DNA of 63,452 nucleotides, filler included, from an uncultured Methanosarcinales archaeon (GTDB taxonomy: Archaea; Nanobdellota; Nanobdellia; Woesearchaeales; B54-G15), in NCBI GenBank assembly GCA_964519225.1. It is 3 parts of 3 records of this genome, joined end to end, with 100 filler letters (N's around TTAATTAATTAA, not from the genome) between each part and the next. Parts side by side here need not be neighbours in the genome. Positions count along the whole stretch, not along the records: positions 1 to 25,902 come from CAZFJK010000012.1; 2 more parts are not named here. The stretch is one strand, 5' to 3'. The notes beneath the pieces are model-generated. The model was given only the letters and a program-made list of their open reading frames with translations, was not told the origin of the DNA and made no database searches. The first letter of the stretch is position 1, and every line of letters begins with the position of its first letter. Both the position numbers and the translations under genes were made by a program. Below are positions 8,622 to 61,226 of this stretch, piece after piece.

Positions 8622-9339
8622 GAGGATACCAACAGGAATCCCTGGTTTAGATAAGATGCTGTTCGGTGGGTTTTTAGAAGGAAGGAATATATTGATTTCA
8701 GGACCATGCGGTGCAGGAAAAACAATTTTTGGTATTCAGTTTCTTTACAATGGTGCAGTAAAATACAACGAACCTGGGTTGTACGTTACGCTTGAAGAGA
8801 CTAAGCAGAAGATTTTTGATGATTGTGCTGCTCTTGGATTTGATCTTCCTACGTTAGAAAGGCAAAACAAATTCCACATCATTGGCGGACCCATAGCAAA
8901 AATAAAGTATTATATGGATAAAGTTGATGCAAAGGCCAGACACATAATAAATGAGATTGGTGAAGTTGTAAAGGATAAGAATGTTAAGAGAGTTGTAATC
9001 GATTCATTGAATCTTTTAACTATCTTAGCAAGCAGCGACGAGGAGAGAAGAAGGATAATTGCTTCTTTGTGCAATATGCTTTCTTCGCTTGGATGCACAT
9101 CATTAATTATAAGCGAAACCGAAGAAGGCAGCATGAAATTGAGCAGGTATGGAATGGAAGAATTTGTTGTTGATGGCGTTGTTGTTTTGTATCTGGTAAG
9201 GCAAGGAAGTAGATTTATTTCAGGTATTGCAATAAGAAAAATGAGAGGAACTGATCATGATAGGGAGATTAGGGTTTATAAGATAGGAAAAGGAGGAATT
9301 GTTGTGTATCCGAATGAAACAATGTTTGGAGAAGTTTAG
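8608..9339 (+). CDS. KaiC/RAD55-family ATPase (single domain)
   Basis: TGIPGLDKMLFGG, GPCGAGKT, TLEE, VVIDSL, IRKMRGT. Confidence 0.93.
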   Translation: MKMYKRIPTGIPGLDKMLFGGFLEGRNILISGPCGAGKTIFGIQFLYNGAVKYNEPGLYVTLEETKQKIFDDCAALGFDLPTLERQNKFHIIGGPIAKIKYYMDKVDAKARHIINEIGEVVKDKNVKRVVIDSLNLLTILASSDEERRRIIASLCNMLSSLGCTSLIISETEEGSMKLSRYGMEEFVVDGVVVLYLVRQGSRFISGIAIRKMRGTDHDREIRVYKIGKGGIVVYPNETMFGEV

Positions 9340-9375
9340 AAAGTTTTTTATAATTCTTTTAGTAAGCTTGGGTGA

Positions 9376-9744
9376 ATGCTTGGCAGAAAAAAAGAGGTTT
9401 TAGTCGATGTGGATAAGGATTTGAAAGCGATTAATGAATTTTTATCGCGGAGTTCTGGCAAGGTTGAACTGCTTAAAAAACTTGCTAAGGATGTTAGTTT
9501 TCTTAGACATCAGGAGAGGATGCTTGCAGAAAAGAATGTTGAAAAAGCTAAGGAAAAAGTCTTTGAAGAAATGATTTTTGCTTTACTCGATTTACTAAAG
9601 CAATATAGTTTTTTTCAACTTGATGTTGACATAAGCGGTGAAAGACTAAAAAGGATTGGGAAGGTTTACTATCAAAGGTTGAAAAATGAATTTCCTGATT
9701 TGTTTGGAAAACTTAAAAAAGAAGACAGGATGTTCTTTGAATAA
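9376..9744 (+). CDS. Hypothetical helical protein
   Basis: 122-aa ORF; stop overlaps the thrS start (TAATG). Confidence 0.6.
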   Translation: MLGRKKEVLVDVDKDLKAINEFLSRSSGKVELLKKLAKDVSFLRHQERMLAEKNVEKAKEKVFEEMIFALLDLLKQYSFFQLDVDISGERLKRIGKVYYQRLKNEFPDLFGKLKKEDRMFFE

Positions 9745-15204: not shown

Positions 15205-15243
15205 AGAAAACATTTAAAATCTATTCATCTATAGTTTCTTTTG

Positions 15244-15873
15244 ATGGAAGAAAATAAACGAGAGATTAATTTTGAAAGGCTGTTTGATATTTTAAGAGAA
15301 GAGAAAGCTAACGAAGAACTTCAATCGCTTGAAAAGGATTTCTTTGAAAAGGTAGGATCGTATGTTAAAGAATATGAAGAATACGCAAGCAAGATAGAAT
15401 CTTCTCTTGAAAAAGAAAAGGCCAAGAAGCAAGAAGAAAACATCAAAAAGATGATTAAAGAATTGTATAATTGGAGAGAAAAGAAAATCGTTGCTCTTGC
15501 TCTTGATGCTGCAAAAACATCGCTTGCATTAATCGATACGACACCTTTGTTAAAAGAGGAAAAGCTGTTGTTCGACAAACTCTATGAGATTTTGGCTAGG
15601 GGAAGAGAAGGCATTTTAGCAAGGCTGCTGTCCGGAGGTATTCCCAAGATTGAATTCGAAGAGAAAAGAAAAGAAGAGGAAGAACCTAAAAACGAAATGA
15701 AAACTGAAAAAAATTCGGGTACAAAACTTATAAGATTTATCTGTGCTGTTCCGAAGTTTGTTGCAGAAGATTTACAATGTTATGGTCCTTTTGAAAAAGA
15801 TGACATTGCAAGAATTCCAGCAAAAGCAGCTGATGTGTTAATTCAAAAGGAAAGAGCAGAAGAGATAAAATAA
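15244..15873 (+). CDS. DNA replication GINS subunit (Gins51/Gins15-like)
   Basis: EK..EELQSLEKDFF..REKKIV A-domain; VPKFVAEDLQCYGPFEKDDIARIP B-domain. Confidence 0.82.
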   Translation: MEENKREINFERLFDILREEKANEELQSLEKDFFEKVGSYVKEYEEYASKIESSLEKEKAKKQEENIKKMIKELYNWREKKIVALALDAAKTSLALIDTTPLLKEEKLLFDKLYEILARGREGILARLLSGGIPKIEFEEKRKEEEEPKNEMKTEKNSGTKLIRFICAVPKFVAEDLQCYGPFEKDDIARIPAKAADVLIQKERAEEIK

Positions 15874-15875
15874 CC

Positions 15876-15938
15876 TGTTACGAAAATCAATTTTCTGTTA
15901 CGAAATGTTACGAAAGAATGTTACGATTTTGTTACGTA
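15876..15938 (+). repeat. 63-bp direct repeat, left copy (5 x TGTTACG)
   Basis: TGTTACG at 15876, 15896, 15906, 15919, 15930; 62/63 identical to 17285-17347; overlaps the 3' end of 15921-17252. Confidence 0.95.
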
Positions 15939-17252
15939 AGTTGTCTTTCTTCCACTGCCTATTTTTTTGATAAGAGCTTTTTTCATAAGTTTTTTTAGGG
16001 TGCGCAATATAGTCATCTTGCTTACGCCAATGCTTCGTGCTAATTCTGTTGATGAACGTGGTTTTGTAAGTAAAGAAAGTATCTTAATCTCTTCCTCACT
16101 TAATTCCTTTACTTTAATTTTTGAAGGCAATCTTCTGAAAATGACAGTTGTATAGACCTCGTCCATTATAAATTCCGGCTCTGGATAATTATTTTCAGCA
16201 CAGTATTTTTTCATCAGTTCTATGCCTATGCCATAACGCTCTACATAGCCAATATCATAGAATAAAGAAGCAAGCAACGGATTTCTCGGAATATGGATTG
16301 GTTTTTCTGGAGACGTTCCAGGCGGAAACCTGCCAGGATTTCTTATTTCTATCCTGTCCTTAAAAACAAAGATAATAATTTCTACTGGAATAAAGTAGTT
16401 TCTGTGTATGGTTGCATTTAGAATTGCTTCACGTAGTGGAGGTATTGGGAATATAGGTCTTTCAATCCGCTGCAGTGCACCTTCAGGAAGATATGATTCT
16501 TTAGGTATTTCGTCCATGAGGATTTTATAAGCCCTATCGACCTGTTCTTTGAGATCGCCTTCGAGTTCGAATTTTGCAATAGGATTTTCCAATTCGGTTG
16601 ATGGAAAAAATTCGAGTCTTATTTTAGCATAAGGGAAAAATTGTTGTGGATTTTTTCCGAAAAAAAGCAATCCTCCGTTGGTTGGAGATTCGTTATGGAT
16701 AATTTTTAATTTTTGCATTGTGGATTTTGTTGGTTTTAGCAATGGTCCTCCACGGCGCTTTGATTTCACTTTCAAAAATTCCTCGATTTTTTTTATTGAA
16801 AGGTCTTTTATGGATGCATCTGGATTGGGTACTGAGTCAAATCTGACGAGGATGCTTTCTGCGGCTCTTGTAATGACTTCATCTATTGTAAGCGGTAGAC
16901 TGAGAGAGCCTATACGAACGTAAGCCACATTTTTATAAGAATATATTTTCCCGTTTGGTTGGAGCGTGAGTACGACGATTAATTTGTCCTGTATTCGAAA
17001 CGGTTGCATAGCGAATTTCGGTTTGGGATATATCGGCTGGATGATCTTTTCCTCGATTTCCTTTTTCCAATTAGTTCCGGGCTTTAGTCCAATGATTTTT
17101 CCATCGTCAGAAATGCCAAATAGGAGGGATCCTTTTCTTGTGTTCAGGAAGGCTACAGCATCTTTAGCTGCTTCGCCCGTGATTTTCGGCTTGAATTCTA
17201 CTCTTTGGTTTTCTCCTTCCTCGATCAGCTTTAAAAATTCGTTGAGATTCAT
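15921..17252 (-). CDS. Schlafen/AlbA_2 - HATPase_c_4 - wHTH protein (often annotated 'RecG-like ATP-binding')
   Basis: EGENQRVEFK..AFLNTRKGSLLFGISDDG; LREAILNATIHRNY..IRNPG..RNPLL..ERYGIGI; C-terminal wHTH. Confidence 0.9.
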   Translation of the reverse strand: MNLNEFLKLIEEGENQRVEFKPKITGEAAKDAVAFLNTRKGSLLFGISDDGKIIGLKPGTNWKKEIEEKIIQPIYPKPKFAMQPFRIQDKLIVVLTLQPNGKIYSYKNVAYVRIGSLSLPLTIDEVITRAAESILVRFDSVPNPDASIKDLSIKKIEEFLKVKSKRRGGPLLKPTKSTMQKLKIIHNESPTNGGLLFFGKNPQQFFPYAKIRLEFFPSTELENPIAKFELEGDLKEQVDRAYKILMDEIPKESYLPEGALQRIERPIFPIPPLREAILNATIHRNYFIPVEIIIFVFKDRIEIRNPGRFPPGTSPEKPIHIPRNPLLASLFYDIGYVERYGIGIELMKKYCAENNYPEPEFIMDEVYTTVIFRRLPSKIKVKELSEEEIKILSLLTKPRSSTELARSIGVSKMTILRTLKKLMKKALIKKIGSGRKTTYVTKS

Positions 17253-17284
17253 CTTTATAGGGCTAAGAGATCGGATTTTATAAA

Positions 17285-17347
17285 TGTTACGAAAATCAAT
17301 TTTCTGTTACGAAATGTTACGAAAGAATGTTACGATTCTGTTACGTA
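17285..17347 (+). repeat. 63-bp direct repeat, right copy (5 x TGTTACG)
   Basis: Same sequence as 15876-15938 except one T>C; abuts the minus-strand TATA (TTTATAAAA, 17276-17284). Confidence 0.95.
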
Positions 17348-17418
17348 TTTGATTCTGATTGAAAAGGATGCAGAACGAAGCGAAATACTTTTAAATTAGT
17401 TGATTCTTCTCGAAGAGA

Positions 17419-17736
17419 ATGAAAATTCCAAAAACGATTAACAGATATTGTCCATACTGCAAGAAAAAAACAGAACATAAAGTCATTCAAGCTAAAAGAA
17501 AGACTCCTGGAAGCGCCCATCCTTTGAGCAGAGGAGGGAAGGTAAGGACAAAATTAAGGGGCGAATGGCGAGGACACGGCAATCTTGGAAAGTACAGTAA
17601 AGGTGCGATGAGTAAATGGAAAAGATACGGTAAAAAGATAAGTAAAAAAGTTGATTTAAGATTTCAGTGCAAGGAATGTGGAAAGATGCATACAAAAAGA
17701 AAAACTAAAAGGGCTAAAAAGGTTGAGTTAAAATGA
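17419..17736 (+). CDS. rpl44e: 50S ribosomal protein L44e (eL42)
   Basis: MKIPKTINRYCPYCKKKTEH..KKVDLRFQCKECGK. Confidence 0.95.
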   Translation: MKIPKTINRYCPYCKKKTEHKVIQAKRKTPGSAHPLSRGGKVRTKLRGEWRGHGNLGKYSKGAMSKWKRYGKKISKKVDLRFQCKECGKMHTKRKTKRAKKVELK

Positions 17737-18697: not shown

Positions 18698-18877
18698 ATG
18701 GCAAAGCATATAATGTTTTGTGACGCGTGTAAAAAATATACAATGCAGAATGTGTGTCCTGTTTGTGGTAAAAAAACAGCAGAAGCTAAACCACCAAAGT
18801 TCAGCATTCAGGATAGATATGGGAAGTACAGAAGGGAAGCAAAAAGAAAGATGTTAATGGAGGCTGGATTATTATGA
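18698..18877 (+). CDS. nop10: Nop10 ribosome biogenesis protein (59 aa; not in ORF track)
   Basis: MAKHIMFCDACKKYTMQNVCPVCGKKTAEAKPPKFSIQDRYGKYRR; ATGA overlap with the next gene. Confidence 0.92.
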   Translation: MAKHIMFCDACKKYTMQNVCPVCGKKTAEAKPPKFSIQDRYGKYRREAKRKMLMEAGLL

Positions 18878-19647
18878 GCAAATGGTTTATTAATAGATAT
18901 CTGAAGAGCTTGAAGGTAGGTAATCCTTTGATGATTGTTGGTTTGCCTGGCATTGGAAATGTCGGTAAGATAGCTGTCGATTTTTTAATCGATGAGCTGA
19001 AAGCAAAGAAAGTGCTTGACTTTTTTTCTTATTCCTTTCCTAATGCTGTTTTTATAAACGAAGAAAGTTTAATCGATGTACCGATTATCGAGGTGTATTA
19101 TAAAAAGCTTAGCGGAGCAGATCTTTTTCTTGTTGGCGGTGATATTCAGCCAATAGATGATGTTGGATGCTATGAGTTCTGTGAATTGTTGTTGAATGAG
19201 TATAAAAAATTCGGTGGCAAGAGATTGATCACACTTGGCGGTGTTGGTTTACAGCATGTTCCAAAGGAGCCAAAGATTTATTGCAGTGGAAATTCAAAAC
19301 GATTTATTAATGCTTTCACTAAGGGAGTGAATGTAGAAAAAAAGGTTTATGGCAAGGTTGGTCCAATCATTGGTGTGAGCGGTGTTTTGCTTGGAATGGC
19401 TCCGAGGTTTGGCATGGATGCAATAACTTTGCTTGCAGAAACTTATGCTCATCCTATGTATCTCGGAATAAAAGGAAGCAGGGAGATAATAAAGATTCTG
19501 AAAAAGAAGTTGGGATTAAAGATCAATCTTAAAGATTTGGATAAAGAAATAAAAGAGATGGAAAGCGAATTGTTGAAAAGAACCGAGGAGCTAAGCACAA
19601 TAATAAAACCAAGAAGAAAAGGAAGGGATGTTAGCTATATTGGATAA
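18874..19647 (+). CDS. PAC2 family (proteasome assembly chaperone-like) protein
   Basis: GLPGIGNVGKIA..GDIQP..ITLGG..IIGVSG; C-terminal YIG (HbYX). Confidence 0.9.
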   Translation: MSKWFINRYLKSLKVGNPLMIVGLPGIGNVGKIAVDFLIDELKAKKVLDFFSYSFPNAVFINEESLIDVPIIEVYYKKLSGADLFLVGGDIQPIDDVGCYEFCELLLNEYKKFGGKRLITLGGVGLQHVPKEPKIYCSGNSKRFINAFTKGVNVEKKVYGKVGPIIGVSGVLLGMAPRFGMDAITLLAETYAHPMYLGIKGSREIIKILKKKLGLKINLKDLDKEIKEMESELLKRTEELSTIIKPRRKGRDVSYIG

Positions 19648-19678: not shown

Positions 19679-20062
19679 ATGCGAAAAGAGATTAAGGTTT
19701 GGTTGGACCAGGCTGTGCAAGATTTTGATGCAGCGTTATATAATTTTGACGGTAGGAGATATTACGTTGCTGCTTTTTTATGTCAGCAGGCTGTTGAAAA
19801 GGCATTAAAGGCTTTATTTTTAAAAAAAAGAAAAGGGATTTTTCCTCAATCGCATTCTCTTATATATTTGGGTAAGGAAGTGAAAGTTCCGAAAGAATTT
19901 CTTGGATTTTTGAGAGAGCTGACTCCTAAATTTATTGATACAAGATATCCTGATGCTGCGTTAGGGATTCCTGCTGAAATTTACGGCGAAGAAAATGTTG
20001 CTGAAATAATTGAACGAACAAAGAAGATCTTAAAATGGATCAAAAACGAACTAGAAAAGTAA
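19679..20062 (+). CDS. HEPN domain protein (HEPN-MNT toxin-antitoxin)
   Basis: AAFLCQQAVEKALKAL..HSL..TRYPD. Confidence 0.9.
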   Translation: MRKEIKVWLDQAVQDFDAALYNFDGRRYYVAAFLCQQAVEKALKALFLKKRKGIFPQSHSLIYLGKEVKVPKEFLGFLRELTPKFIDTRYPDAALGIPAEIYGEENVAEIIERTKKILKWIKNELEK

Positions 20063-20367
20063 GAAGTTGTTTGGAAAAAGGCTTCTTGAGGTTTGTAGAA
20101 ACCATAAAGAAAAAGTTTGATGCAAAGGTTTTGCTTTTTGGAAGCAGAGCAAAGGGAGAATGTTTTAAGTTCAGTGATTATGATGTAATTGTGATCTCGC
20201 ACAAGTTTGAAGGAGTTCAGTGGCATGAGAGAATAAGCGACATCGTTAAGTATTGGCGTCTAAACAAAGATCTCCACGTTCTGCCCTATACTGAAAAAGA
20301 ATTCGAGAAGAAAAAGAAGATGCGAACGATTGTGCAGGTTGCAGTAAAAGAAGGTTTTTATCTGTGA
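20035..20367 (+). CDS. Minimal nucleotidyltransferase (MNT antitoxin)
   Basis: LLFGSRAKG..SDYDVIVIS..YTEKEF. Confidence 0.88.
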   Translation: MDQKRTRKVRSCLEKGFLRFVETIKKKFDAKVLLFGSRAKGECFKFSDYDVIVISHKFEGVQWHERISDIVKYWRLNKDLHVLPYTEKEFEKKKKMRTIVQVAVKEGFYL

Positions 20368-20430
20368 CTTGATTATTTTAGTAATTTTATTAGGAAAGTT
20401 TATATAAAGATTTGAACTTTTTGGTTGAAA

Positions 20431-21144
20431 ATGAAAATCGAATTGACAAAAAAACCAAAAAACGTAACGATAATTGAAGGTTTTCCTGGTTATGGTTTGG
20501 TTAGCACAATAACAACAGAGTTCTTGCTTGATCATATTGATGACATAGAAAAGATTGGAAGAATATGGCTACCTGAAGCGCCTGCAATGATTGCAGTACA
20601 CAAAGGAAAGGTTGTTGAGCCTTTTGGAATATTTTATAGCAAAAAATACAATCTCGTTATAATTCATGTTGTTACGACCGTTTTTGGCTTTGAATGGGAA
20701 ATGGCAGAGGCTGTTATGGAACTTGCCAAGCAGTTAAATGCAAAAGAGATCATAAGTGTTGAAGGTATTAGCAGCGCTGAGATCGGAGAAAAGCCAAGAG
20801 CATTTTATTTTTCAACGAATGCTACAAGATTAAAAAGGTTAAAACAAATTGCTGATGCTCAACTGCAGGAAGGTATTATTGTTGGTGTAACAGGAATAAT
20901 GATGTTGATGGGCGATAGAAAGATTCCTGTTACTGCTATATTTGCAGAGGCGCATAGTGAGTTGCCTGACAGCAAAGCTGCTGCAAGGATAATAGAGGTT
21001 TTGAATGAATACATAGGATTGGATGTTGATCCAAAGCCGTTGCTAAAGCAAGCAGAGATGTTCGAGAAAAAATTACAGCAATTACTTACTCAAACGAGAA
21101 AGATGATGGAAGAACAGAAAAAGAAGTTGAGTTATGTAGGTTAA
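20431..21144 (+). CDS. PAC2 family proteasome assembly chaperone paralog
   Basis: EGFPGYGLVSTI..GIIVGVTG..LPDSKAAA; C-terminal YVG. Confidence 0.9.
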   Translation: MKIELTKKPKNVTIIEGFPGYGLVSTITTEFLLDHIDDIEKIGRIWLPEAPAMIAVHKGKVVEPFGIFYSKKYNLVIIHVVTTVFGFEWEMAEAVMELAKQLNAKEIISVEGISSAEIGEKPRAFYFSTNATRLKRLKQIADAQLQEGIIVGVTGIMMLMGDRKIPVTAIFAEAHSELPDSKAAARIIEVLNEYIGLDVDPKPLLKQAEMFEKKLQQLLTQTRKMMEEQKKKLSYVG

Positions 21145-23280: not shown

Positions 23281-24129
23281 TTATTCATCTAAAGGATTTT
23301 TCACTTTCTTTATCTGCTCTAAGCTTACCTTTGTGTAGCGTTCTGTTGTTGCAAGGTTTGCATGACCGAGAAGGGTTTGAATGACTCTTATATCTGTTCC
23401 TTGTTCAAGTAAGTGTGTTGCAAAGCTCGCTCTTAGAGCATGACAGTAAACTCTTTTTTTAATACCTGCCTTTTCAGCAAGGGATTTTATGATCTTTTCT
23501 GCCTGTCTTGGAGTTATTGGTTGATCTTGCCTGCTCGGGCTAGGGAAAAGAAATTCGTTTTCTGGAAATTTTTCCTTCAGTTTTGGAATATATTCCTGCA
23601 GATCTCTGACTAAAGCAGTTGAAAGTATAACAATTCTGTCTTTTTTCCCCTTTCCTGCTTTGACAACAGCTATTTTTTCTTTCAGATCGAGGTCGTTTAT
23701 TCGCATTTTAACAGCTTCAGAAACACGCAATCCAGCTGAATAGAGAAGCTCTACAAGAATCTTGTGTTTTTGATTCTTTGCTGATGCTATCATTTGTTTT
23801 ATTTCGTCTTTTGTTAGAACAGTAGGAATCTTTTTTTCTAGCTTTGGAGATTCTATCCTGCTGAATATGTCTCGTTCAAGGATTTTTTTATAGAAAAATC
23901 GTAAAGTGCATAAAGCTAAGTTGACTGAGGAAGGTTTTAGTTTTTTATCGAACAGGAGATGAGCGATATAGCTTTTTACGTCTTCTTCTGTTGCTTCTTG
24001 CGGATGTTTTTTGATAAAAGAAAGGAATTCTTTGTTGAAGAATAGGTATGTTTTTACTGTTTTTTCTGAAAAGCCTCTTAGCTTAAGCTCTGTTTCGAGC
24101 TGTTTTAAAGCAGAGTGGATTTGTTGCAT
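23281..24129 (-). CDS. xerA: Tyrosine recombinase XerA
   Basis: SAM-like N-domain (LRGFSEKTVKTY); catalytic R (GLRVSE), K (GKGKKDR), HALR, LGH, RY. Confidence 0.9.
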   Translation of the reverse strand: MQQIHSALKQLETELKLRGFSEKTVKTYLFFNKEFLSFIKKHPQEATEEDVKSYIAHLLFDKKLKPSSVNLALCTLRFFYKKILERDIFSRIESPKLEKKIPTVLTKDEIKQMIASAKNQKHKILVELLYSAGLRVSEAVKMRINDLDLKEKIAVVKAGKGKKDRIVILSTALVRDLQEYIPKLKEKFPENEFLFPSPSRQDQPITPRQAEKIIKSLAEKAGIKKRVYCHALRASFATHLLEQGTDIRVIQTLLGHANLATTERYTKVSLEQIKKVKNPLDE

Positions 24130-25902: not shown

Positions 25903-26002
25903 NNNNNNNNNNNNNNNNNNNNNNNNNNNNNNNNNNNNNNNNNNNNTTAATTAATTAANNNNNNNNNNNNNNNNNNNNNNNNNNNNNNNNNNNNNNNNNN
26001 NN
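25903..26002. other. Artificial contig-join linker (N44-TTAATTAATTAA-N44)
   Basis: Ns around a six-frame stop linker. Confidence 0.97.
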
Positions 26003-26003
26003 A

Positions 26004-26077
26004 CGGGCCCGCCCGGATTTGAACCGGGGTCTGGTGGTCCGAAGCCACCCGTCCTATCCAGGCTAGACTACGGGCCC
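26004..26077 (-). tRNA. tRNA-Arg(TCG)
   Basis: GGGCCCG..GGTGG-CTTCGGA-CCACC..TTCAAAT..CGGGCCC on the minus strand. Confidence 0.95.
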
Positions 26078-26159
26078 ACGAAAGAACAAACGTTTCTAAC
26101 TTATATATGTTGCGTTCAAAATATAAAAAACAAGAAAGAAAAACAAAGAATAAAAGCAC

Positions 26160-51094: not shown

Positions 51095-51194
51095 NNNNNN
51101 NNNNNNNNNNNNNNNNNNNNNNNNNNNNNNNNNNNNNNTTAATTAATTAANNNNNNNNNNNNNNNNNNNNNNNNNNNNNNNNNNNNNNNNNNNN
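51095..51194. other. Artificial contig-join linker
   Basis: N44-TTAATTAATTAA-N44. Confidence 0.97.
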
Positions 51195-51196
51195 AT

Positions 51197-51270
51197 GGGC
51201 CCATAGCTTAGCCTGGAAGAGCACCCGGCTCTTAACCGGGGGGTCGGGGGTTCAAATCCCTCTGGGCCCA
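51197..51270 (+). tRNA. tRNA-Lys(CTT)
   Basis: GGGCCCA..CCCGG-CTCTTAA-CCGGG..TTCAAAT..TGGGCCC. Confidence 0.95.
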
Positions 51271-51282
51271 TATTTAATCAAA

Positions 51283-52143
51283 ATGTATCAAAACAGGAAA
51301 ATATTTGATGTGCATGCACACGTAGGAAAATTTGGAAAATGGTTCTTAAAGGGTCATGAAATAGAGCCATTCAAAAATAGAGAAATTGATTCTATTGAAT
51401 CTCTGCGTACGTTCATGAAAGAGAAAGGTATAGATTACATCATTGTTATGCCGCATTATACGCCAGATCAGACAAAACCTTTTGTTGAATATAATCCGCT
51501 TGTAGTTGAATGTATCTCGAAAATAGAGAATGCGTACGGTGGACTGTGGATTTCGCCAAGAGAAGACGTTTGGCATCTTTCTGAAAAAGTACTTGATAAA
51601 GAACCTCACCCAAAAATAAAAGTGTTAAAAATCAGTCCTGATAGCTGGCCAAAAGGAGTAAGTATGGATCCAGGCAGTTGGAATGAAACATTTAGGAAGA
51701 ACTTTGAAGAGATAATAGATTTTGCCAAAAAACATAACTTGATAATACATTCTCATACAGGAAGCGGCAATTCTGATGTTATGAAATATGTGCCCTTTGT
51801 CGAGGCTTATGGTAGAAAAGTTAGACTTCATTTTGTTCATATGGGTGGTTCTGCAGGAGGACACTTTGCATTTATTCCGAGATTTATTGAATGGTTAAAA
51901 CAGGGATATGACTTTTATTGTGATACTTCTTTCTGTAGGGGATTTGCGCCTTATTGGCTCGTAAGGAAACTTCTTGAGGAATACCCAGAGGGCTTATCGA
52001 GAATTATGTTCGCTTCTGATAATCCTTGGGGATTATGGGAAAGTGAGTTTTGGAGAGTAGAGGGAATGCCCGTCGATGATGATATTAAGGAGAAAATTTT
52101 TTATCATAACGCCGTAAGAGTATATCTGGGTGATGAAAGATGA
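51283..52143 (+). CDS. Amidohydrolase-family (TIM-barrel) metal hydrolase
   Basis: DVHAH, HSHTG, VHMGG, DTS, FASDNPW, YHNA. Confidence 0.88.
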   Translation: MYQNRKIFDVHAHVGKFGKWFLKGHEIEPFKNREIDSIESLRTFMKEKGIDYIIVMPHYTPDQTKPFVEYNPLVVECISKIENAYGGLWISPREDVWHLSEKVLDKEPHPKIKVLKISPDSWPKGVSMDPGSWNETFRKNFEEIIDFAKKHNLIIHSHTGSGNSDVMKYVPFVEAYGRKVRLHFVHMGGSAGGHFAFIPRFIEWLKQGYDFYCDTSFCRGFAPYWLVRKLLEEYPEGLSRIMFASDNPWGLWESEFWRVEGMPVDDDIKEKIFYHNAVRVYLGDER

Positions 52144-52784
52144 AGTTGATCGTTTTTAACTTAAGTACTTTGCTTTCAGGCGAACATGTTGGTGGCATTT
52201 ACAGGTTTCTTGCGGAACAATTTGGAAAAAGTGAAGAATATGATCGCATAGGAAAAGAATACAAAGAAAGAAGGAAAGAGGGGCCCTGGGGTTTGGATCA
52301 GGTTGCAAAGCTCTTTGAAGGAGTTAGCTGTGATGAATTTAGAAGAGCATGTGCCTCATATGTAGATAATTACATAAAAGAAGAAGCTAAGACGGTCCTA
52401 AGAAAATTAAAAGAAAAAGGAATTATGATTGGTATTCTTACTTCGAATCCGTATGCTGTTATAGATGCTCTTGCAAAGAAAATAGGTGTTGAATTTGATT
52501 TAGCGGTAGGTAATGAATTTGAATGTGTTGAAGGAAAGCTGAGTGGAAAATTGAAAGAAGTTGTTGATAGGCATGTAAGAAAAGAAAAATTAGAAAAGTT
52601 TATCTCGGAACACAATATTTCGAAAAATGATATAATTTATGTGGCATGTTCATTAACAGACATTCCTGCAGCAGAACTTTGCGGAAATATTTTCTGTGTT
52701 GATGCGCACGATGAAGAGCTTAAAGAAAAATGCACATCACCTTTAGGTAATTTAAGTGAGCTTTTGTCTTATGTCGAGTGTTGA
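52140..52784 (+). CDS. HAD-superfamily (SerB-like) protein with a degenerate active site
   Basis: SerB-like fold, but motif I reads FNLSTLL (no DxD) and motif IV reads ACSLTD. Confidence 0.72.
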   Translation: MKLIVFNLSTLLSGEHVGGIYRFLAEQFGKSEEYDRIGKEYKERRKEGPWGLDQVAKLFEGVSCDEFRRACASYVDNYIKEEAKTVLRKLKEKGIMIGILTSNPYAVIDALAKKIGVEFDLAVGNEFECVEGKLSGKLKEVVDRHVRKEKLEKFISEHNISKNDIIYVACSLTDIPAAELCGNIFCVDAHDEELKEKCTSPLGNLSELLSYVEC

Positions 52785-52847
52785 CTTAAAACAAAACTTT
52801 TTTATTTAACTTTTCAACGGATTTCTAAAAGCCTCCCTTATGCTTAT

Positions 52848-52964
52848 GCGGGGGTGGCCGAGTGGTCAAAGGCGCAGGACTTAAGAGCTTGCGCAAAGGG
52901 CTACTCGCCCTCTAAGAAATCCTGTCCCGAAGAGGGTTCGTGGGTTCAAATCCCACCCCCCGCA
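52848..52964 (+). tRNA. tRNA-Leu(TAA) with a canonical 33-nt intron at 37/38 (52886-52918)
   Basis: CAGGA-CTTAAG|intron|A-TCCTG; BHB central helix CTTA/TAAG; long variable arm. Confidence 0.92.
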
Positions 52965-52992
52965 TTATCAAATTTAGAAAATATGAAAACAT

Positions 52993-53064
52993 GCCCCCGT
53001 AGCTCAGTGGTTGAGCGCTACCTTGGTAAGGTGGAGGTCCCGGGTTCGATCCCCGGCGGGGGCT
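52993..53064 (+). tRNA. tRNA-Thr(GGT)
   Basis: GCCCCCG..CTACC-TTGGTAA-GGTGG..TTCGATC..CGGGGGC. Confidence 0.95.
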
Positions 53065-53078
53065 GATTTAACTTTACG

Positions 53079-53426
53079 ATGAGAAAGAAAAGGGTTTCAA
53101 AAAGAAAGGATATAAAAAAAATTGCAAGGCAGAGAATACGAATATTGTTCGGGCAGGCAGAAAAAGTATTCAAAAAAGATCCGAAGCTTGCTGATAGATA
53201 TGTGGCAATAGCAAGAAGAATAGCAATGAAAGCCCGTGTCAGGATTCCGAGGGAGTTTAAAAGAAGATTCTGCAAACATTGTTATGCTTATCTCGTTCCT
53301 GGCGTAAATTGCAGAGTTAGGCTTGTCGGACAAAAGGTTGTTTATTACTGTTTTAGATGTAAAAAATACATGAGATTTCCTTATATAAAAGAAAAGAAGA
53401 ATCAGAAGAAAGAGAAGAGAAAATGA
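53079..53426 (+). CDS. rnp4: RNase P protein Rpp21
   Basis: IARQRIRILF..ADRYVAIARRIA..KRRFCKHC..CFRC..RFPY. Confidence 0.95.
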   Translation: MRKKRVSKRKDIKKIARQRIRILFGQAEKVFKKDPKLADRYVAIARRIAMKARVRIPREFKRRFCKHCYAYLVPGVNCRVRLVGQKVVYYCFRCKKYMRFPYIKEKKNQKKEKRK

Positions 53427-53677
53427 ATTTCAAACTCGAACTTGACAAGGTTGCAGAATTGATCCAAAAAGAAAAAGCAAAAAGGGTTTGCATTCAGTTA
53501 GCTGATGGATTGAAGCCTAAAGCCAAGGAGATTGTTGATTTTTTAGAAGAGAAGACAGATGCAACAATATTTATCTGGTATGGCAGCTGCTATGGTGCCT
53601 GTGATGTTCCGAAAATTGACGAATCCTTTGATTTGCTCGTTCAATTTGGACATAAGGAATTTAAGAAAAATGATTAG
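53423..53677 (+). CDS. dph2: Dph2 (diphthamide synthesis) N-terminal domain only
   Basis: RVCIQLADGLK..SCYGACDV..LLVQFGH; only 84 aa. Confidence 0.75.
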   Translation: MNFKLELDKVAELIQKEKAKRVCIQLADGLKPKAKEIVDFLEEKTDATIFIWYGSCYGACDVPKIDESFDLLVQFGHKEFKKND

Positions 53678-54023
53678 CAAAAGTATTATTTATATTATCG
53701 GTTTCTCAGGAGTTCTGTTTGGATTCTTGCTCAAAAAACTTGCTTTGGATGAATTGAAGGAAAAAAGCTTTGTCAAAAAGATAGTGCTGGCAAGAAAAAT
53801 TGTGTTTGCTGTTACAACTTTCTTTTCAGTTATTCTAATAAAGAATTTTTATATTGATCTGGTTTTGATTTTTCTCTTTATTCTGTTTTTCAAAAGACGA
53901 TTTTTGCCTTATACGTCTTTTGCTTTGATGTTTTTGTTTGGGTTTTCTTTTTTAACAGCACAATTGATTTTTATCTACGGTTTATTAGCGCCAGTTGAAA
54001 TTAAAAATGGAATCCGCAATTAA
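53670..54023 (+). CDS. Small multi-pass membrane protein
   Basis: Likely start MISKSIIYIIGF; several hydrophobic segments. Confidence 0.6.
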   Translation: MISKSIIYIIGFSGVLFGFLLKKLALDELKEKSFVKKIVLARKIVFAVTTFFSVILIKNFYIDLVLIFLFILFFKRRFLPYTSFALMFLFGFSFLTAQLIFIYGLLAPVEIKNGIRN

Positions 54024-54693
54024 AAGATACGATCTTCATGTACATAGCTGTTATTCGCCGTGCTCAAATTTAAAACCTAAAACAATCCTTAAGATAGCTC
54101 GCAGACTTGAATTAGACGGAGTAGCTATAACAGATCACAATACAATTAAGGGCGGTTTGGCTGTGAAGAGAGAAAACAAGGAAAAAGGATTTGAAGTGAT
54201 TGTTGGTGAGGAAATTTCGACAAATCGCGGCGAAGTGATTGGGTTGTATTTGAATGAAGAAATTGAAAAAGGAACTGATTTTTTTGAAGCGATTGATTTG
54301 ATCAAGCGCCAAGGCGGCTTAGTTGTGATTCCGCATCCGTTCAGTTTTGGTTTGATAAGAAAATCTGTTTCTTCATTAGATGAGGTTAGAAGTAAGATCG
54401 ATGCAATTGAATGTTTCAATGGAAGATGCTTTTTTCCCTGGGAGAATTCTAAAGCAAGAAATCTTGCTAAGAAGTTTAATATTGCGTGTACTGCTGGAAG
54501 CGATGCGCATTTCTGGTTTGAGCTTGGAAATTGCATAACAATGTTTGAAAAGAAATTTTCATTGAGTGAGGCAATAAGCAAGAAAAAGACTTCTGTTGTC
54601 GGAACAATAAAAGGTGCTTACCTTGGCAGAGGATTGAGTCTTCTCGTTAAAGTTTACCAAAACTTTTTTAAAAATGGTAAGGGCATGGTTTAG
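54007..54693 (+). CDS. PHP-domain phosphoesterase
   Basis: DLHVHS, AITDHN, GEEIST, IPHPF, GSDAH. Confidence 0.92.
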   Translation: MESAIKRYDLHVHSCYSPCSNLKPKTILKIARRLELDGVAITDHNTIKGGLAVKRENKEKGFEVIVGEEISTNRGEVIGLYLNEEIEKGTDFFEAIDLIKRQGGLVVIPHPFSFGLIRKSVSSLDEVRSKIDAIECFNGRCFFPWENSKARNLAKKFNIACTAGSDAHFWFELGNCITMFEKKFSLSEAISKKKTSVVGTIKGAYLGRGLSLLVKVYQNFFKNGKGMV

Positions 54694-54696
54694 AAT

Positions 54697-54768
54697 GCCC
54701 CGGTAGCTTAGTGGTGGAGCGCGCGGCTGTTAACCGCGAGGTCGCCGGTTCGAATCCGGCCCGGGGCG
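54697..54768 (+). tRNA. tRNA-Asn(GTT)
   Basis: GCCCCGG..CGCGG-CTGTTAA-CCGCG..TTCGAAT..CCGGGGC. Confidence 0.95.
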
Positions 54769-54827
54769 CTTATTTTTGTTTTCTGGCACTCAAAAATTTT
54801 AAAAATAAATGCATAGTCGCCCATCAT

Positions 54828-55661
54828 ATGCGAAGAAATCTTGAAGCAATAATAGACACCATATGTGCAATTTCGCTCGCTGATATTCATTTTGCACGTA
54901 TTGTTGATTTTGATGGAGAAGGGGAAGCCTTGTTTTTCGTGAACGATTTGTGGTATGAAATCTTTAATAGAGTTAGTTCGCAAGCCCCAAGAGAGAGATT
55001 GAGCAATCTGTATGCACCTGAACTATCTGTTATTAGGGTTAGAAAAAATGTTCCTAATATTATGAAATACGTATGCGCTTATGCAGACTCCAAACATTTT
55101 CCAGGTGTAAAACCAATCCATTATTTATCAGGCATCTTGGTTTTTTTAACCGAAGGTGTTGGTTTTGATGAAAAGCGTTTATATCATGAATTTCCTTGGA
55201 TTGTGTACAAAACAATTTTGACTATTGCTCCTGTGCTTGGAAGCAGATTTTGCTATGATCAATTTGAAAGAGAAATTCTAATGCTATCTTCCAGAAAGGA
55301 ATACCAACGGCTTATAGTGCGAGAATATCTGAAGTTCGGTTTCCTTTTTAGCTGGCGTAACAACACATCTTTATACGAAAGTATTGAAGAATACCATGGG
55401 CTTAGAAAAGCATTGGTTTTGAGAAGCATAGCTTACGGAATCGATTCCATGTTTAATAATCCATTGCTGGAAAAATTCTCTTTTGGATTTGCACAGCGTA
55501 TTATTTGCGAAGGAATGGGTGTGCTTAAAAATATCTACGAAATCTTAAGGAGGGGTTTGCATCTGATAGGAGCATACGAACGGGAGATTCCTGGCTTAGA
55601 CCCGATATTTTTAAGCGTGATGCAAGGAAAGCCTTTTGTGCTTATGCAGGAAAATGATTAG
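54828..55661 (+). CDS. Hypothetical protein between two tRNA genes
   Basis: Likely start MRRNLE at 54828 after a TATA; the ORF-track start lies inside tRNA-Asn. Confidence 0.55.
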   Translation: MRRNLEAIIDTICAISLADIHFARIVDFDGEGEALFFVNDLWYEIFNRVSSQAPRERLSNLYAPELSVIRVRKNVPNIMKYVCAYADSKHFPGVKPIHYLSGILVFLTEGVGFDEKRLYHEFPWIVYKTILTIAPVLGSRFCYDQFEREILMLSSRKEYQRLIVREYLKFGFLFSWRNNTSLYESIEEYHGLRKALVLRSIAYGIDSMFNNPLLEKFSFGFAQRIICEGMGVLKNIYEILRRGLHLIGAYEREIPGLDPIFLSVMQGKPFVLMQEND

Positions 55662-55731
55662 CATAAGTTTTAAGGATTTAAAAGAAAAATTCTTAAATAA
55701 CTGTTCTTGCTCTTTAGTTTTTGGAGTTTTT

Positions 55732-55806
55732 GGGCCCGTGGCCTAGCCTGGTTGGGGCGTTCGCCTGATAAGCGAAAGGTCCGGGGTTCAAATCCCCGCG
55801 GGCCCA
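55732..55806 (+). tRNA. tRNA-Ile(GAT)
   Basis: GGGCCCG..TTCGC-CTGATAA-GCGAA..TTCAAAT..CGGGCCC. Confidence 0.95.
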
Positions 55807-55924
55807 TTGTTTTTATTTTATTTTCTTTCTCTTTCGATAAGTTGTAATTCATCACCATAAAGTTTAAATATCAGTTAGTATTCGAGAATGCTAACAAATT
55901 TATTGAAAACGAGGGGGTGTGTTA

Positions 55925-57097
55925 ATGAAAAAGCTATTTTTAGTATGTTTTGTGGCTCTACTTTTATTGCTGAGTGGGTGCGGGATTTCTGATTACATGA
56001 AACAAAAGGAAGTTGGTGAAGAAGAGGAACTTAGTCTGCTTGAAGAGAAGGAATTGATTGAAGAGGGTGTAGAGAACATAACTGAAGAAACAGCTGAAGT
56101 TGAGGAAGAAGCAGAGATCAAAAAAGGAATCGAAGAAGTCGAAGAAGTGGTAGCAGAAGAAATTACTGAAAAAGAAACTAACGTTTCTGAAGAGAAAGAG
56201 GAGGAAGAAACAGTTTCTACAAAGGTTGAAGAAGTAAATGAAGAAGACTTTGATGTTATAATTAAAGTAAAAGAAAGAGACCTGGTTAATCTTCAACCAA
56301 AAGTTATAGATCCCGATAATGATGATATTGCTTTTACTTATAGTGAACCTTTAGATGAAAATGGGAAATGGCAAACTGATTACGGTGATGCTGGAAAGTA
56401 TGTCATAACAATAACTGTGAGTGATGGTGTTACAACAACTGAGAAACAGATTCTTTTGGTTGTTGAAAAGGTAAATGTGCCGCCAGTAATTGAAGGTGTG
56501 GAAGACAAAATCGTTATTGATGAAGGTGACGTGCTCGAATTAAAGCCGCACGTTTATGATCCGAACAAAGATGAAGTGACGGTAAGCATAAGCCAACCAG
56601 TTGGAGACGATGGCATTTGGGAAACAGACTATCAAAGTGCAGGAGAATATACTGTTGTTATAACAGCAAGCGATGGTGAGCTTGAAACAACAAAAGAGAT
56701 ACAAGTTATCGTTAACAGAAAAAATGTTGCGCCAATAATTGAAGAATTAGAAGATGTTGAAGTGGATGAAGGTGAAGTAATTAAAATAACACCTAAAGTA
56801 ACTGATTTGAACGGCGATGAAGTGACGATCACCTTGAGCGAACCCGAAGGTAAAGAAGATGTTTGGAGCAAAGAGAATGGCTCCTTTATTTGGAATACGA
56901 CTTACACTGATCACGGTGAATATGTTATAACAGTCACTGCTTCCGACGGTGAATTAGAAAGCACAACAAACTTTACCATAACAATCAATGATATAAATAT
57001 GCCGCCAGAAATTATTGACGTTATAAATGTGGGTGAAGAGGCCGAAGAAACAGAAACTACAGCTGAAGCAGAAAGTGAAAACGCGACTGAAGAATAA
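55925..57097 (+). CDS. Lipoprotein with an acidic linker and three cadherin-like/Ig repeats
   Basis: Lipobox LLSGC; repeats D.D.D..WQTDYGDAGKY..TVSDG..N.PP. Confidence 0.85.
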   Translation: MKKLFLVCFVALLLLLSGCGISDYMKQKEVGEEEELSLLEEKELIEEGVENITEETAEVEEEAEIKKGIEEVEEVVAEEITEKETNVSEEKEEEETVSTKVEEVNEEDFDVIIKVKERDLVNLQPKVIDPDNDDIAFTYSEPLDENGKWQTDYGDAGKYVITITVSDGVTTTEKQILLVVEKVNVPPVIEGVEDKIVIDEGDVLELKPHVYDPNKDEVTVSISQPVGDDGIWETDYQSAGEYTVVITASDGELETTKEIQVIVNRKNVAPIIEELEDVEVDEGEVIKITPKVTDLNGDEVTITLSEPEGKEDVWSKENGSFIWNTTYTDHGEYVITVTASDGELESTTNFTITINDINMPPEIIDVINVGEEAEETETTAEAESENATEE

Positions 57098-57098
57098 A

Positions 57099-59297
57099 AT
57101 GTGGTATTGTAAATTTATTTTATTTTTCTTATTTTTAACCTTAGCTAGTTTTACTTGTTCTAATCTCCTTTATGCTAGTGATTTAGTTCCTAGTAAAGAT
57201 GATATCCTTAAGGAGATTGTTGTATGCGAAACAGACACTATCAAATTGAAACTTTCTACATATGATGCTGACGGAGACAAACTTACTTATATCTTTTCTC
57301 CGCCATTAAATGAAGAAGGGGAATGGAAAACCAATTATGGTGACGCTGGTGAATATATTGTTAATGTAACTGTTTCTGATGGAGAAAATATCATTGCGAA
57401 AAGGGTTAAAATTATTGTTCTGCCTAAAAACAGGCCGCCGAAGGTTGTTATGCCTGATGAGGTCGTTGCTTTTGAAGGTGATTTGATCGAGATCAAACCA
57501 GAAATTTATGATTATGAAGATGATCAAATAACAGTAAGCGCGACACCTCCGCTAGGGGATGATTTGAAATGGCAGACCACCTACGATGATGCCGGGATTT
57601 ATGATGTTGAGATTTTGTTTTCTGATGGTGAGAATGTCGTTAAAAAAAATGTTAAAATCATTGTTCAGGATAAGAACAGATTGCCAGAATTCACTGTAAT
57701 TGAACCTGAAGATGATGCAATTTCGATAAAAGAAAGCCAAAATATTTCTTTTTATGTTGATGCTTTCGACCCAGATTTAGATGAACTTAATTTTCTCTGG
57801 TTTGTGGATGAAAAAAAAGTTGGTGAAGGAAAAAGTTTTGTTTTGAAAACTGGGTTTAAAGATGCAGGTAAAAAAACAGTTGAAGTTGTTGTTAATGACG
57901 GGAAAAACATAGTGCAGAAAAAGTGGTTTGTGCATGTTAAAGATGTGAATAGAAAACCAACATTGGAAGTAAGTCCTGAAAAATTAAAAGTGAAGGAGGG
58001 AGATCTTGTAAAACTCACAGTTAAAGCATCTGATCCGGACGATGATCCTTTTGACATTGACATTGAAGAGCCGTTTGATAAAAATTTCGAATGGCAAACA
58101 GACTACGATGATGCAGGCAATTATACAATAATGATTAAAGTTAGCGATGGAAAAGATAGCGTAAAAAAATTTGTTCATGTAGAAGTTAAGGATATGAATA
58201 GAAAGCCTGTCTTTAAAGATGTTCCTAAACTAAAGGTTGTTGAAGGCGGCTTTGTGACGCTAGATTTGAATACGTATGTTAATGATCCTGATGGCGATGA
58301 AATTACTTTATATGCTGGAAGGCTGCCGAAGGGGGCTGAATTTATTAACGGTATTTTAATTTACAAACCCGGCTTCGATACCGTAGTACATAGCCACGGT
58401 TTGCTCGGCTGGAAAAACAAAACTCAAAAGAAGATTGTTGTTTACGCTTCTGATGGAAAAGATGAAACAAAGAAAAAAATACGTATTGATGTTTTTGATA
58501 AGAACAGACCGCCAACAATTGAATCTATAGACGATATTTGGATAGAAGAAGGCGATGAGATTAGAATTAATCCTAAAGTGAGCGATCTAGATTGTGATGA
58601 ATTAAAAATTACTTTCAGTCCACCACTTAATGAAAGAGGGCAGTGGCAAACAGATTACGATGATGCAGGGTCATACGTTGTTAGAGTAACTGTTTCAGAC
58701 GGAATCGACAATACATCTTTACAGTTTAAAATCAATGTTGAAAATGTCAATCGGCTTCCTGAAATAAATTTGCCCGAGAAATTTGAGATTTTTGAAAATG
58801 AAACATTAAAGATAAATTTTGCTTCTGGTATTTTTGATCCTGATGGAGATGAGTTAGAAATTCTTGTAAAGAACGTGCCAGAAAATGCAACTTTTGTTAA
58901 TAACACTTTTGAATGGATACCGAGTTTTGACTTTGTTCAAAATGCCGAACTTAGAAATGCTACACTTGATTTTGTTGTAAGTGATGGAAAAAATTTAACC
59001 AGCGGCAAGATTGTGATTGAAGTTAAAAATAAAAACAGGCCGCCAAAGATAGAAAAAGCATTACAATCAGCTAAAACAGTGTTTGTTGGTGATAGTGTTC
59101 ATTTCAAAGTTGTTGCGTCTGATCCTGATGGTGATGAGCTTTTATATAAATGGAAATTCGGTTTGCTTGATGCTGTTGAGGGCGCAAGCATGCTAAGAAG
59201 AACTTTTACTTCCAGTGGTAATAAGCTGATTAAGGCGATTGTTTGCGACAAAGAATCATGCATAGAGCAATCTTTTTCTGTAAGTGTTGTAGGTTAA
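57099..59297 (+). CDS. Secreted protein with tandem cadherin-like/PKD Ig repeats
   Basis: Signal peptide from MWYCK; repeated DPDGD..WQTDYDDAG..VSDG..NRPP units. Confidence 0.85.
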   Translation: MWYCKFILFFLFLTLASFTCSNLLYASDLVPSKDDILKEIVVCETDTIKLKLSTYDADGDKLTYIFSPPLNEEGEWKTNYGDAGEYIVNVTVSDGENIIAKRVKIIVLPKNRPPKVVMPDEVVAFEGDLIEIKPEIYDYEDDQITVSATPPLGDDLKWQTTYDDAGIYDVEILFSDGENVVKKNVKIIVQDKNRLPEFTVIEPEDDAISIKESQNISFYVDAFDPDLDELNFLWFVDEKKVGEGKSFVLKTGFKDAGKKTVEVVVNDGKNIVQKKWFVHVKDVNRKPTLEVSPEKLKVKEGDLVKLTVKASDPDDDPFDIDIEEPFDKNFEWQTDYDDAGNYTIMIKVSDGKDSVKKFVHVEVKDMNRKPVFKDVPKLKVVEGGFVTLDLNTYVNDPDGDEITLYAGRLPKGAEFINGILIYKPGFDTVVHSHGLLGWKNKTQKKIVVYASDGKDETKKKIRIDVFDKNRPPTIESIDDIWIEEGDEIRINPKVSDLDCDELKITFSPPLNERGQWQTDYDDAGSYVVRVTVSDGIDNTSLQFKINVENVNRLPEINLPEKFEIFENETLKINFASGIFDPDGDELEILVKNVPENATFVNNTFEWIPSFDFVQNAELRNATLDFVVSDGKNLTSGKIVIEVKNKNRPPKIEKALQSAKTVFVGDSVHFKVVASDPDGDELLYKWKFGLLDAVEGASMLRRTFTSSGNKLIKAIVCDKESCIEQSFSVSVVG

Positions 59298-59759: not shown

Positions 59760-59772
59760 TTTTATTTTTTAA

Positions 59773-61215: not shown

Positions 61216-61226
61216 ATAATTCAAAT

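Follow-up and report, generated by a model that had tools for sequence, protein, structure and literature searches.

We analysed a stretch of 63,452 nt (the window) from the genome of a Woesearchaeon (DPANN). It consists of three contigs (positions 1-25902, 26003-51094 and 51195-63452), joined by N44-TTAATTAATTAA-N44 linkers at 25903-26002 and 51095-51194. The first contig contains a gene for a Schlafen-type protein between two copies of a 63-nt direct repeat, here called R, and the whole repeat-gene-repeat feature lies inside this contig. The gene is found among translation genes, outside any defence island, see Table 1. On balance, we favour the reading that R is the gene's own cis element, i.e. 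the predicted docking site of the C-terminal winged helix-turn-helix (wHTH) domain of the protein.

Table 1. Features at and around the Schlafen gene. The columns give the feature, its position in the window, the strand and remarks; ORF, open reading frame.
Feature	Position	Strand	Remarks
gins51 (Gins51)	15241..15873	+	left boundary of the insertion; stop 2 nt before the left copy of R
R, left copy	15876..15938	.	TGTTACG at 15876, 15896, 15906, 15919, 15930
Schlafen gene	15921..17252	-	443 aa; sole ORF between the R copies
Schlafen TATA-like box TTTATAAAA	17276..17284	-	directly abuts the right copy of R (edge 17285); 23 nt upstream of the ATG
R, right copy	17285..17347	.	five TGTTACG units; adjoins the Schlafen TATA-like box
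Patch between the right copy of R and the rpl44e promoter	17348..17375	.	scrambled between the window and L001
rpl44e promoter, TATA region ACTTTTAAATTAG	17387..17399	+	corresponds to the AACCTTTTTAAA-type box that related loci have ~20 nt before rpl44e
rpl44e (L44e)	17419..17736	+	right boundary of the insertion; first gene of the rpl44e-rps27e-eif2a-nop10-PAC2 string
XerA-like tyrosine recombinase	23281..24129	-	282 aa, N-terminal SAM-like domain; followed by a 117-aa ORF and a 182-aa wHTH ORF

The two copies of R are identical at 62/63 positions (98%), start 1409 nt apart and share a longest exact run of 53 nt. Each contains five TGTTACG heptamers at offsets 0/20/30/43/54, i.e. with spacings of 20/10/13/11 nt (11/13/10/20 on the gene strand), and the boundaries of the repeat are exactly those of the array. 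With a spacing of about one helical turn, R is a phased array of at least four units located beside the gene of a DNA-binding protein. There are 15 such heptamers in the window, compared with an expected 2.8; 0/100 shuffles reach 15, and the two copies of R account for ten of them. Beyond these copies, no array of any 7-mer (at least four occurrences within 80 nt) was found in the 63-kb window. R was also ruled out as a dispersed genomic repeat, with no further copy in the window. Neither is it an attachment (att) site derived from a tRNA or a known RNA, because an Rfam scan of the window at the gathering thresholds gives only tRNAs, and ARAGORN places none of its tRNAs close to the feature.

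On the gene strand, the left copy is read as five CGTAACA units, which begin at the codon of the wing tyrosine of the wHTH and contain the stop codon (15921-15923); the repeat includes the final five codons (YVTKS) together with the stop. The right copy overlaps the position where the transcription factor B (TFB) recognition element (BRE) of the Schlafen promoter is expected, and ends 41 nt upstream of the rpl44e TATA region. An earlier sequence-only reading of the window had described the repeats, their heptamers, the coding left copy, the right copy next to a TATA box, and the antisense position of the gene between gins and rpl44e. The repeat search, the sequence itself and the co-oriented Gins51 and L44e genes bear out this anatomy.

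The TTTATAAAA box is the predicted promoter of the Schlafen gene, according to archaeal promoter geometry. A TATA-to-ATG distance such as the one seen here is the geometry of a leaderless archaeal promoter, and a leaderless transcript is implied because the box is located so close to the ATG. The box is also kept in the closely related locus L001.

The domains of the protein were assigned by profile searches, a structural model and fold comparison. In Pfam, SLFN_AlbA_2 (PF04326) matches residues 14-120 with 67.3 bits (cut-off 25.3) and the GHKL ATPase domain HATPase_c_4 (PF13749) residues 291-372 with 70.3 bits (cut-off 26), while the C-terminal wHTH, approximately residues 383-441, is matched below threshold by Pfam and NCBIfam models. 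NCBIfam and PADLOC give only Csa3-type HTH matches and partial matches to Slfn/GHKL proteins associated with pAgo; with these partial matches PADLOC calls no known defence system for the gene. In an alignment with 18 homologues, residues E275, N279, G307, G341 and G343 of the GHKL domain are invariant, and we take these to belong to the Bergerat motifs. Also invariant are E14-x4-E19-x-K21 and N37 in a VAFLN box, i.e. the Ex4(E/D)xK motif together with a SAFAN-type box. This combination is described as the Schlafen nuclease signature in the accessible text of two studies (10.64898/2026.05.29.728809; PMC13056530).

The AF2 model, based on the 18 homologues, has a mean pLDDT of 88.9, and its C-terminus consists of three helices and a beta-hairpin wing. 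Residues 438-441 form the wing strand, where Y439 aligns with the conserved wing Tyr/Trp of the homologues. Because the tyrosine of YVTKS is this conserved residue, in the last beta strand of the model, R carries genuine coding sequence. Using Foldseek, we found matches to the uncharacterised full-length structure 3lmm, to the nuclease domains of SLFN11/13/14, to the tRNase domain of SAMD9, to PDK2-type GHKL kinases and to SmtB-type repressors; SmtB/CzrA superpose on the wHTH with 1.3-1.4 A over 58 residues. A profile search of the PDB is consistent with these fold matches. Pfam and Foldseek agree with what had earlier been read from the sequence, a Schlafen/AlbA_2 protein with a wHTH.

As judged from its sequence, the protein is a prokaryotic Schlafen (pSlfn) formed by an Slfn nuclease, a GHKL ATPase and a wHTH, with the nuclease and ATP-binding motifs intact. 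Since the domains, the invariant motifs, the model and the published description of the class agree, it is an ordinary member of the large and known GHKL-HTH class of pSlfns, with a predicted function. At 90% identity it belongs to a cluster of 14 proteins from separate assemblies, which are 92-95% identical to the window protein, and all 12 full-length members (12/12) end in YVTKS. Beyond the cluster, the nearest relatives in the protein databases are at most 44% identical. Assemblies often break in or near the Schlafen gene: member P0077 is on a contig of 1438 nt and P0074 is cut at residue 197 by the end of its contig. In P0075 (376 aa), another N-terminus replaces the first ~76 residues.

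To describe the junction where the gene is located, we compared 80 loci anchored on eIF2a, with a total of 1.13 Mb of related sequence. The gene string S-layer protein, gins, rpl44e, rps27e, eif2a, nop10 and PAC2 is conserved across these loci. GINS and L44e are co-oriented in 50 out of 80, where they are adjacent in 31, separated by 100-500 nt in 10 and by larger gaps in 9; the remaining 30 loci are uninformative (no L44e match in 13, no GINS match in 9, a contig that is too short in 7, and a rearrangement in 1). Where the two genes are adjacent, the junction measures 33-85 nt and holds little beyond the rpl44e TATA box; the window junction minus R and the gene is 73 nt long. Of the 80 loci, 79 have neither a Schlafen homologue nor a TGTTACG pair. 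Because the two genes are adjacent in 31 of the 50 loci and the gene and array are absent from the 79, the 1.47-kb segment is, by sequence comparison, a lineage-specific insertion at an otherwise tightly conserved junction. Gene and array travel together, because both were inserted jointly into this ribosomal-protein junction of a DPANN genome.

Larger gaps between gins and rpl44e in other loci contain genes unrelated to Schlafen (L003, L005, L011, L013, L030, L052, L053, L061, L065, L070 and L074). The inserts include GT2 glycosyltransferases, TrmB- and AsnC-type regulators, an AdoMet decarboxylase, radical SAM and GGDEF proteins, pyruvate:ferredoxin oxidoreductase and small wHTH ORFs. Because unrelated inserts are found in other Woesearchaeota, the junction is a recurrent spot of rearrangement.

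These loci also bear on the idea that R belongs to the host, i.e. that it regulates the rpl44e operon or terminates gins, and was duplicated like a target site when the gene landed. The distance of 41 nt between the right copy and the rpl44e TATA region would suit such a role, as would a conserved YCGACGR motif at the equivalent place in many relatives. However, since a TGTTACG pair and a Schlafen gene are both absent from the other loci (0/79), R does not belong to the host at this junction. The empty junctions of 33-85 nt correspond to the window junction without R, the repeat holds the conserved wing Tyr codon and the stop of the gene, and homologues found in other, unrelated settings have their own 3' arrays, as described below. 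A host origin of R is hardly credible.

Many groundwater Woesearchaeota, including L006, L012, L016, L024, L027, L031, L032, L043 and L051, have the YCGACGR motif (often TGTCGACGATAA) ~25-35 nt ahead of the TATA box of rpl44e. The TGTCGACGATAA palindrome recurs in a repeat region of L001 and is absent from the window junction.

The conservation of R was studied in one close relative, L001, whose contig begins inside the Schlafen gene, so that only the side of the right copy can be compared. The orthologue of the right copy (L001:623-685) is found at the same place. It differs from the window copy at 4/63 sites, all of them in spacers, and all five heptamers are unchanged. Among the three copies of R, 0/35 heptamer positions vary compared with 4/28 spacer positions (p = 0.034), i.e. 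the units are conserved while the spacers drift. The window and L001 share 89% identity in the Schlafen coding DNA, and between them the 25 nt beyond R are scrambled. Because of this scrambling, the patch up to the rpl44e promoter appears to be unconstrained.

The same relative helps to evaluate whether the duplication of R could stem from a repeat that was misjoined in a metagenome-assembled genome (MAG). The window does concatenate MAG contigs, and several related contigs end near the Schlafen gene. However, the two copies of R differ at one site, and L001 provides an independent assembly of the right copy together with its gene junction. The full-length proteins, which come from separate assemblies, end in YVTKS and so imply the left junction, and both outer junctions run into conserved syntenic genes. 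We regard an assembly artefact as extremely improbable.

Using tblastn, homologues of the protein with 24-35% identity were found on 167 plasmid and 29 phage records, while a blastn search of 15850-17400 against plasmids gave no match. We picked 27 plasmid and phage loci by hand from the BLAST lists for diversity; two pairs of orthologues reduce these to 25 independent loci. A 3' array was called by a strict rule when an exact 7-mer occurs four times within 90 nt and the array starts at -35 to +30 relative to the stop codon, and by a relaxed rule when three copies of the unit suffice; the arrays counted start at -31 to +30. Five out of 25 loci have a 3' array by the strict rule (L083=L089, L088, L090, L101, L108) and seven by the relaxed one (adding L094 and L093). 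For five out of 25 loci, the binomial probability is 2e-9; with a null chosen to be generous, it is 8e-5. By the relaxed rule, arrays are present in 7/19 loci with a free 3' flank and in 0/6 where the next ORF abuts.

The layouts of these arrays vary. In Rhodothermus (L083=L089), five ATTGGGCA-type units with spacings of 11/9/11/11 extend from the wing Tyr codon to past the stop. In Hymenobacter (L090), two ATTGGCTCA units are located across the stop and two more follow after 76 nt, and the ten-mers of Phocaeicola (L094) have the same 11/76/11 layout. Two Streptococcus loci contain 10-nt units, 15 copies from +1 in L088 and 19 copies from +30 in L101. The enterobacterial-type, HTH-less relatives L108 and L093 have TTGCTTGAT units that start at +26 and +18, respectively. 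L093 is a Citrobacter IncC plasmid with TTGCTTGAT spacings of 11/67 and L108 a Vibrio cidicii plasmid with 54/24/11, and their units lie 18-120 nt after the stop. In L093, the Slfn-GHKL gene comes after a gene for a TrlF-type ATPase, and the TTGCTTGAT units precede a type I restriction gene.

The detector was also run on three of these replicons, 126 kb in all, and gave seven arrays: three are the 3' arrays, four are located upstream of rep or par genes, and no other annotated gene has one at its 3' end. The rep and par arrays of pRMAR01 were recovered by the same detector. The repeat units differ among the homologues, and the presence and type of the array track the similarity of the HTH. L083, L090 and L094 have mutually nearest C-terminal domains, two of the three with similar units, and the C-terminal domains of L088 and L101 pair up, while in a group with a GGYW-type HTH no 3' array was found in five loci. 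Among the loci compared, the C-terminal domain of the window protein is closest to that of L083.

A full-text search of the accessible literature returned no report of 3' arrays with prokaryotic Schlafen genes. The accessible text of 10.64898/2026.05.29.728809 and PMC13056530 makes no mention of repeats, operators or iterons beside these genes. The gene family is known, and it is the association with a 3' array, recognised by sequence comparison, that appears to be new.

Because similar arrays end the genes of distant relatives on bacterial plasmids, the array is probably the protein's own docking site. By analogy with the iterons and centromere repeats beside rep and par genes, binding of R by the product of the adjacent gene would be the simplest reading. 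In terms of sequence layout, the left copy is the form typical of the family, a phased array that starts inside the last codons and moves with the gene. The copy on the promoter side is the local peculiarity and probably an operator for autorepression. That the wHTH binds the heptamers had already been proposed in the sequence-only reading; the proposal gains from heptamers that are invariant against drifting spacers and from the homologues' own 3' arrays, and it stands as a prediction of binding. The same reading had suggested a search of the flanks of homologues for similar arrays, and these do occur at the 3' end with other units, but bracketing direct repeats (exact, at least 14 nt) were found in 0/8 of the homologue loci searched.

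Several observations weigh against R as a docking site. Nine out of 14 HTH-bearing homologues with a free flank have no array and five have one, where the presence of an HTH was judged from the C-terminal sequence and length only. Two of the arrays (L093, L108) follow relatives without an HTH. The array of the Streptococcus elements is located between the Schlafen-type gene and an integrase gene, and because of this position it is conceivable that these are integrase arm sites instead. The unit was not found upstream of the gene in L083, L089, L090 and L088, so autoregulation at the promoter is not a family-wide role of the array and is possible only for the extra copy in the window. The two copies in the window differ at one position compared with four between the orthologous right copies (Poisson p = 0.09), a hint of homogenisation that is not significant. 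Finally, the homologue sample is hand-picked, not systematic.

This similarity of the copies would also suit an active mobile or amplifiable cassette, a possibility that the sequence-only reading had suggested. Recombination between the two copies of R, either homologous or by a recombinase acting in trans, would excise a circle of 1409 nt, which could reintegrate or be amplified in tandem. The geometry is correct for this: the circle would hold the promoter, the ORF and the stop, the copies share 53 nt of perfect identity, and the edges of the repeat coincide with those of the array. The segment is certainly an insertion, with direct repeats at its boundaries, and a tyrosine recombinase is encoded 6 kb away. 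In addition, the contig of P0077, at 1438 nt, is as long as the output expected from an assembler with k=31 for a closed 1408-nt cycle, which we consider numerology and a coincidence.

However, no second copy or site exists in the 63-kb window or in the 1.13 Mb of related loci, and in L001 the segment occupies the same locus with the same right junction at 89% nucleotide identity. A domain scan found no recombinase inside the segment, in agreement with the earlier reading, and its sole product consists of Slfn, GHKL and HTH domains. The recombinase 6 kb away resembles a housekeeping XerA, and dif-like inverted arms are absent from R. A circle junction was not found, and an empty site with a single R was not seen at the gins-rpl44e junction: the 31 empty junctions among the 50 informative loci are from distant relatives and none has R, while L001 keeps the arrangement of the window. 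With 0/79 loci carrying the segment and 0/8 homologues bracketed, the proposal of an active cassette is not supported. Its geometric part, that R x R recombination can release a circle, is correct, but the data give no support for its occurrence. We consider an active mobile cassette unlikely. The XerA-like recombinase and the 117-aa and wHTH ORFs that follow it are also present in L001 (6653-8520).

A related possibility is that the segment is the remnant of an integrated mini-replicon, a circle of ~1.4 kb with R as iterons and the protein as initiator, captured with terminal redundancy. Five phased direct repeats do resemble iterons, our detector picks up the rep-proximal iterons of pRMAR01, R-gene-R equals one unit plus an extra R, and the family is common on plasmids, as the 167 plasmid records attest. 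The Slfn-GHKL-HTH architecture is, however, unlike any known initiator, and the plasmid homologues adjoin separate rep and par genes that have arrays of their own. An AT-rich unwinding element did not turn up, although no search was aimed at one. Such an origin is very unlikely.

Returning to R as a docking site, the wHTH would bind the five phased heptamers as an ATP-dependent oligomer. Binding at the right copy, next to the TATA-like box and over the TFB/BRE position, would repress the gene itself, and it might also affect the divergent rpl44e promoter. The pair-76 nt-pair geometry common to L090 and L094 would fit a dimer of dimers, and five contiguous units would fit an oligomer on one face of the DNA. 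We arrive at this idea because ATP-driven tetramerisation has been reported for the same Slfn and GHKL supradomain (accessible text of 10.64898/2026.05.29.728809).

The R-gene-R segment is equivalent to one unit and one R. The second copy may come from a circular or tandem donor from which more than one unit was captured, or equally possibly from a later duplication; beside the right copy of R, we saw no trace of another copy of the gene. Selection on the heptamers, and possibly gene conversion, would then keep the copies alike.

A wider and rather doubtful extension is that Slfn-GHKL-HTH proteins, as the commonest pSlfn class, form modules of a gene and its docking array. The protein would load in cis onto the array at its own last codons and be kept there as an inactive ATP-dependent oligomer, and loss, damage or titration of the DNA, whether through phage attack or because the locus is lost, would free the tRNase, which would make a DNA-tethered one-gene switch for abortive infection or addiction. 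In the Woesearchaeon, with an array on both sides, the 1.4-kb unit could by the same improbable scheme form a loop, shut down its own expression and leave as a circle.

Some further observations concern the surroundings of these loci. The genes rpl44e and rps27e overlap in the window, while in many Woesearchaeal loci (including L006, L008, L012, L014 and L016) they are separated by 1.5-2.3 kb. A HEPN/nucleotidyltransferase (MNT) pair (19679-20367) is located between two PAC2 paralogues (18874-19647 and 20425-21144), ~2.3 kb from the Schlafen gene; most related loci have a single PAC2 gene after nop10. Contigs 2 and 3 open with tRNA genes, tRNA-Arg (26003-26078) and tRNA-Lys (51196-51271), respectively, and the order across the N-linkers is no evidence of synteny.

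In L001, positions 9290-9600 contain ~20 TGGGACTA/TGAGACTA units with 11-nt spacing and three TTATCGACGATAA-type palindromes. This region is located upstream of a 226-aa gene for a coiled-coil and wHTH protein (L001:8570-9250, minus strand), with the XerA-like recombinase and a pair of small wHTH genes close by, and contig 1 of the window ends (25902) at the equivalent edge. It could be a centromere-like or origin-like region. Among the homologue loci, L104:9026-12622 (Streptococcus respiraculi, NZ_CP022681.1) is filed as a plasmid and looks phage-type, with tail, holin and lysin genes. Its lysogeny module consists of an integrase, 15 repeats of 10 nt, a Schlafen-GHKL-HTH gene and a LexA/CI-like repressor, where the Schlafen gene has the position typical of prophage-borne exclusion genes.

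A role of the gene in defence is plausible. Several of the plasmid homologues are located in restriction-modification or BREX operons. According to the accessible text of the published studies, tRNA cleavage and phage defence are known only for other pSlfn architectures (PMC13056530; for RzAgo, 10.64898/2026.05.29.728809), and the HisKinase-HTH class is outside the four architectures tested for phage defence (PMC13056530). For the window protein, both the tRNase activity and the role in defence are predictions from the analysis of its domains.

The segment can be compared with four kinds of known systems. Like att-flanked elements and integron cassettes, it is an inserted gene within direct repeats, where recombination would free a circle. 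Unlike them, it encodes no recombinase, has its own promoter and is known from one site, and R is formed by direct heptamers without the inverted symmetry of attC or dif.

The array itself resembles iterons and plasmid centromeres, such as R1 parC-ParR with its two sets of five 11-bp iterons (PMC2241845, accessible part). In both cases, about five short direct repeats with helical spacing are located by the gene of a DNA-binding protein, and the units are conserved while the spacers are free. Here, in contrast, the array is at the 3' end, within the last codons, instead of at the promoter, the protein is a predicted nuclease-ATPase and not a Rep or ParR, and the gene separates the two sets by 1.4 kb.

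With SLFN-pAgo (RzAgo), the protein shares the Slfn and GHKL module, and the PADLOC pAgo model matches residues 33-310. In this Argonaute-fused protein, ATP drives tetramerisation and the nuclease is caged in an inactive assembly, according to the accessible text of 10.64898/2026.05.29.728809. The sensor is a wHTH in the window protein, not an Argonaute core, and there is no guide RNA.

The closest system is the pSlfn GHKL-HTH class itself, which has the same order of three domains with the nuclease and ATP-binding motifs intact. In the accessible parts of the two studies, Slfn with GHKL is described as a widespread "Schlatpase" supradomain in which more than 90% of the tails have an HTH (10.64898/2026.05.29.728809), and HisKinase-HTH fusions make up 19.2% of 5,930 pSlfns (PMC13056530). 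Prokaryotic Schlafens have recently been shown to be tRNases with an antiviral role, in which the fused domains serve as sensors. The accessible parts of the two studies do not address what the HTH recognises (PMC13056530; 10.64898/2026.05.29.728809). The 3' array is a candidate DNA ligand for the HTH of this very abundant class. The window gene differs from the class in being archaeal (DPANN), in its ribosomal-protein neighbourhood instead of a defence island and in having the array twice, i.e. it is a natural variant with an array on both sides, in a ribosomal-protein junction of a reduced DPANN genome.

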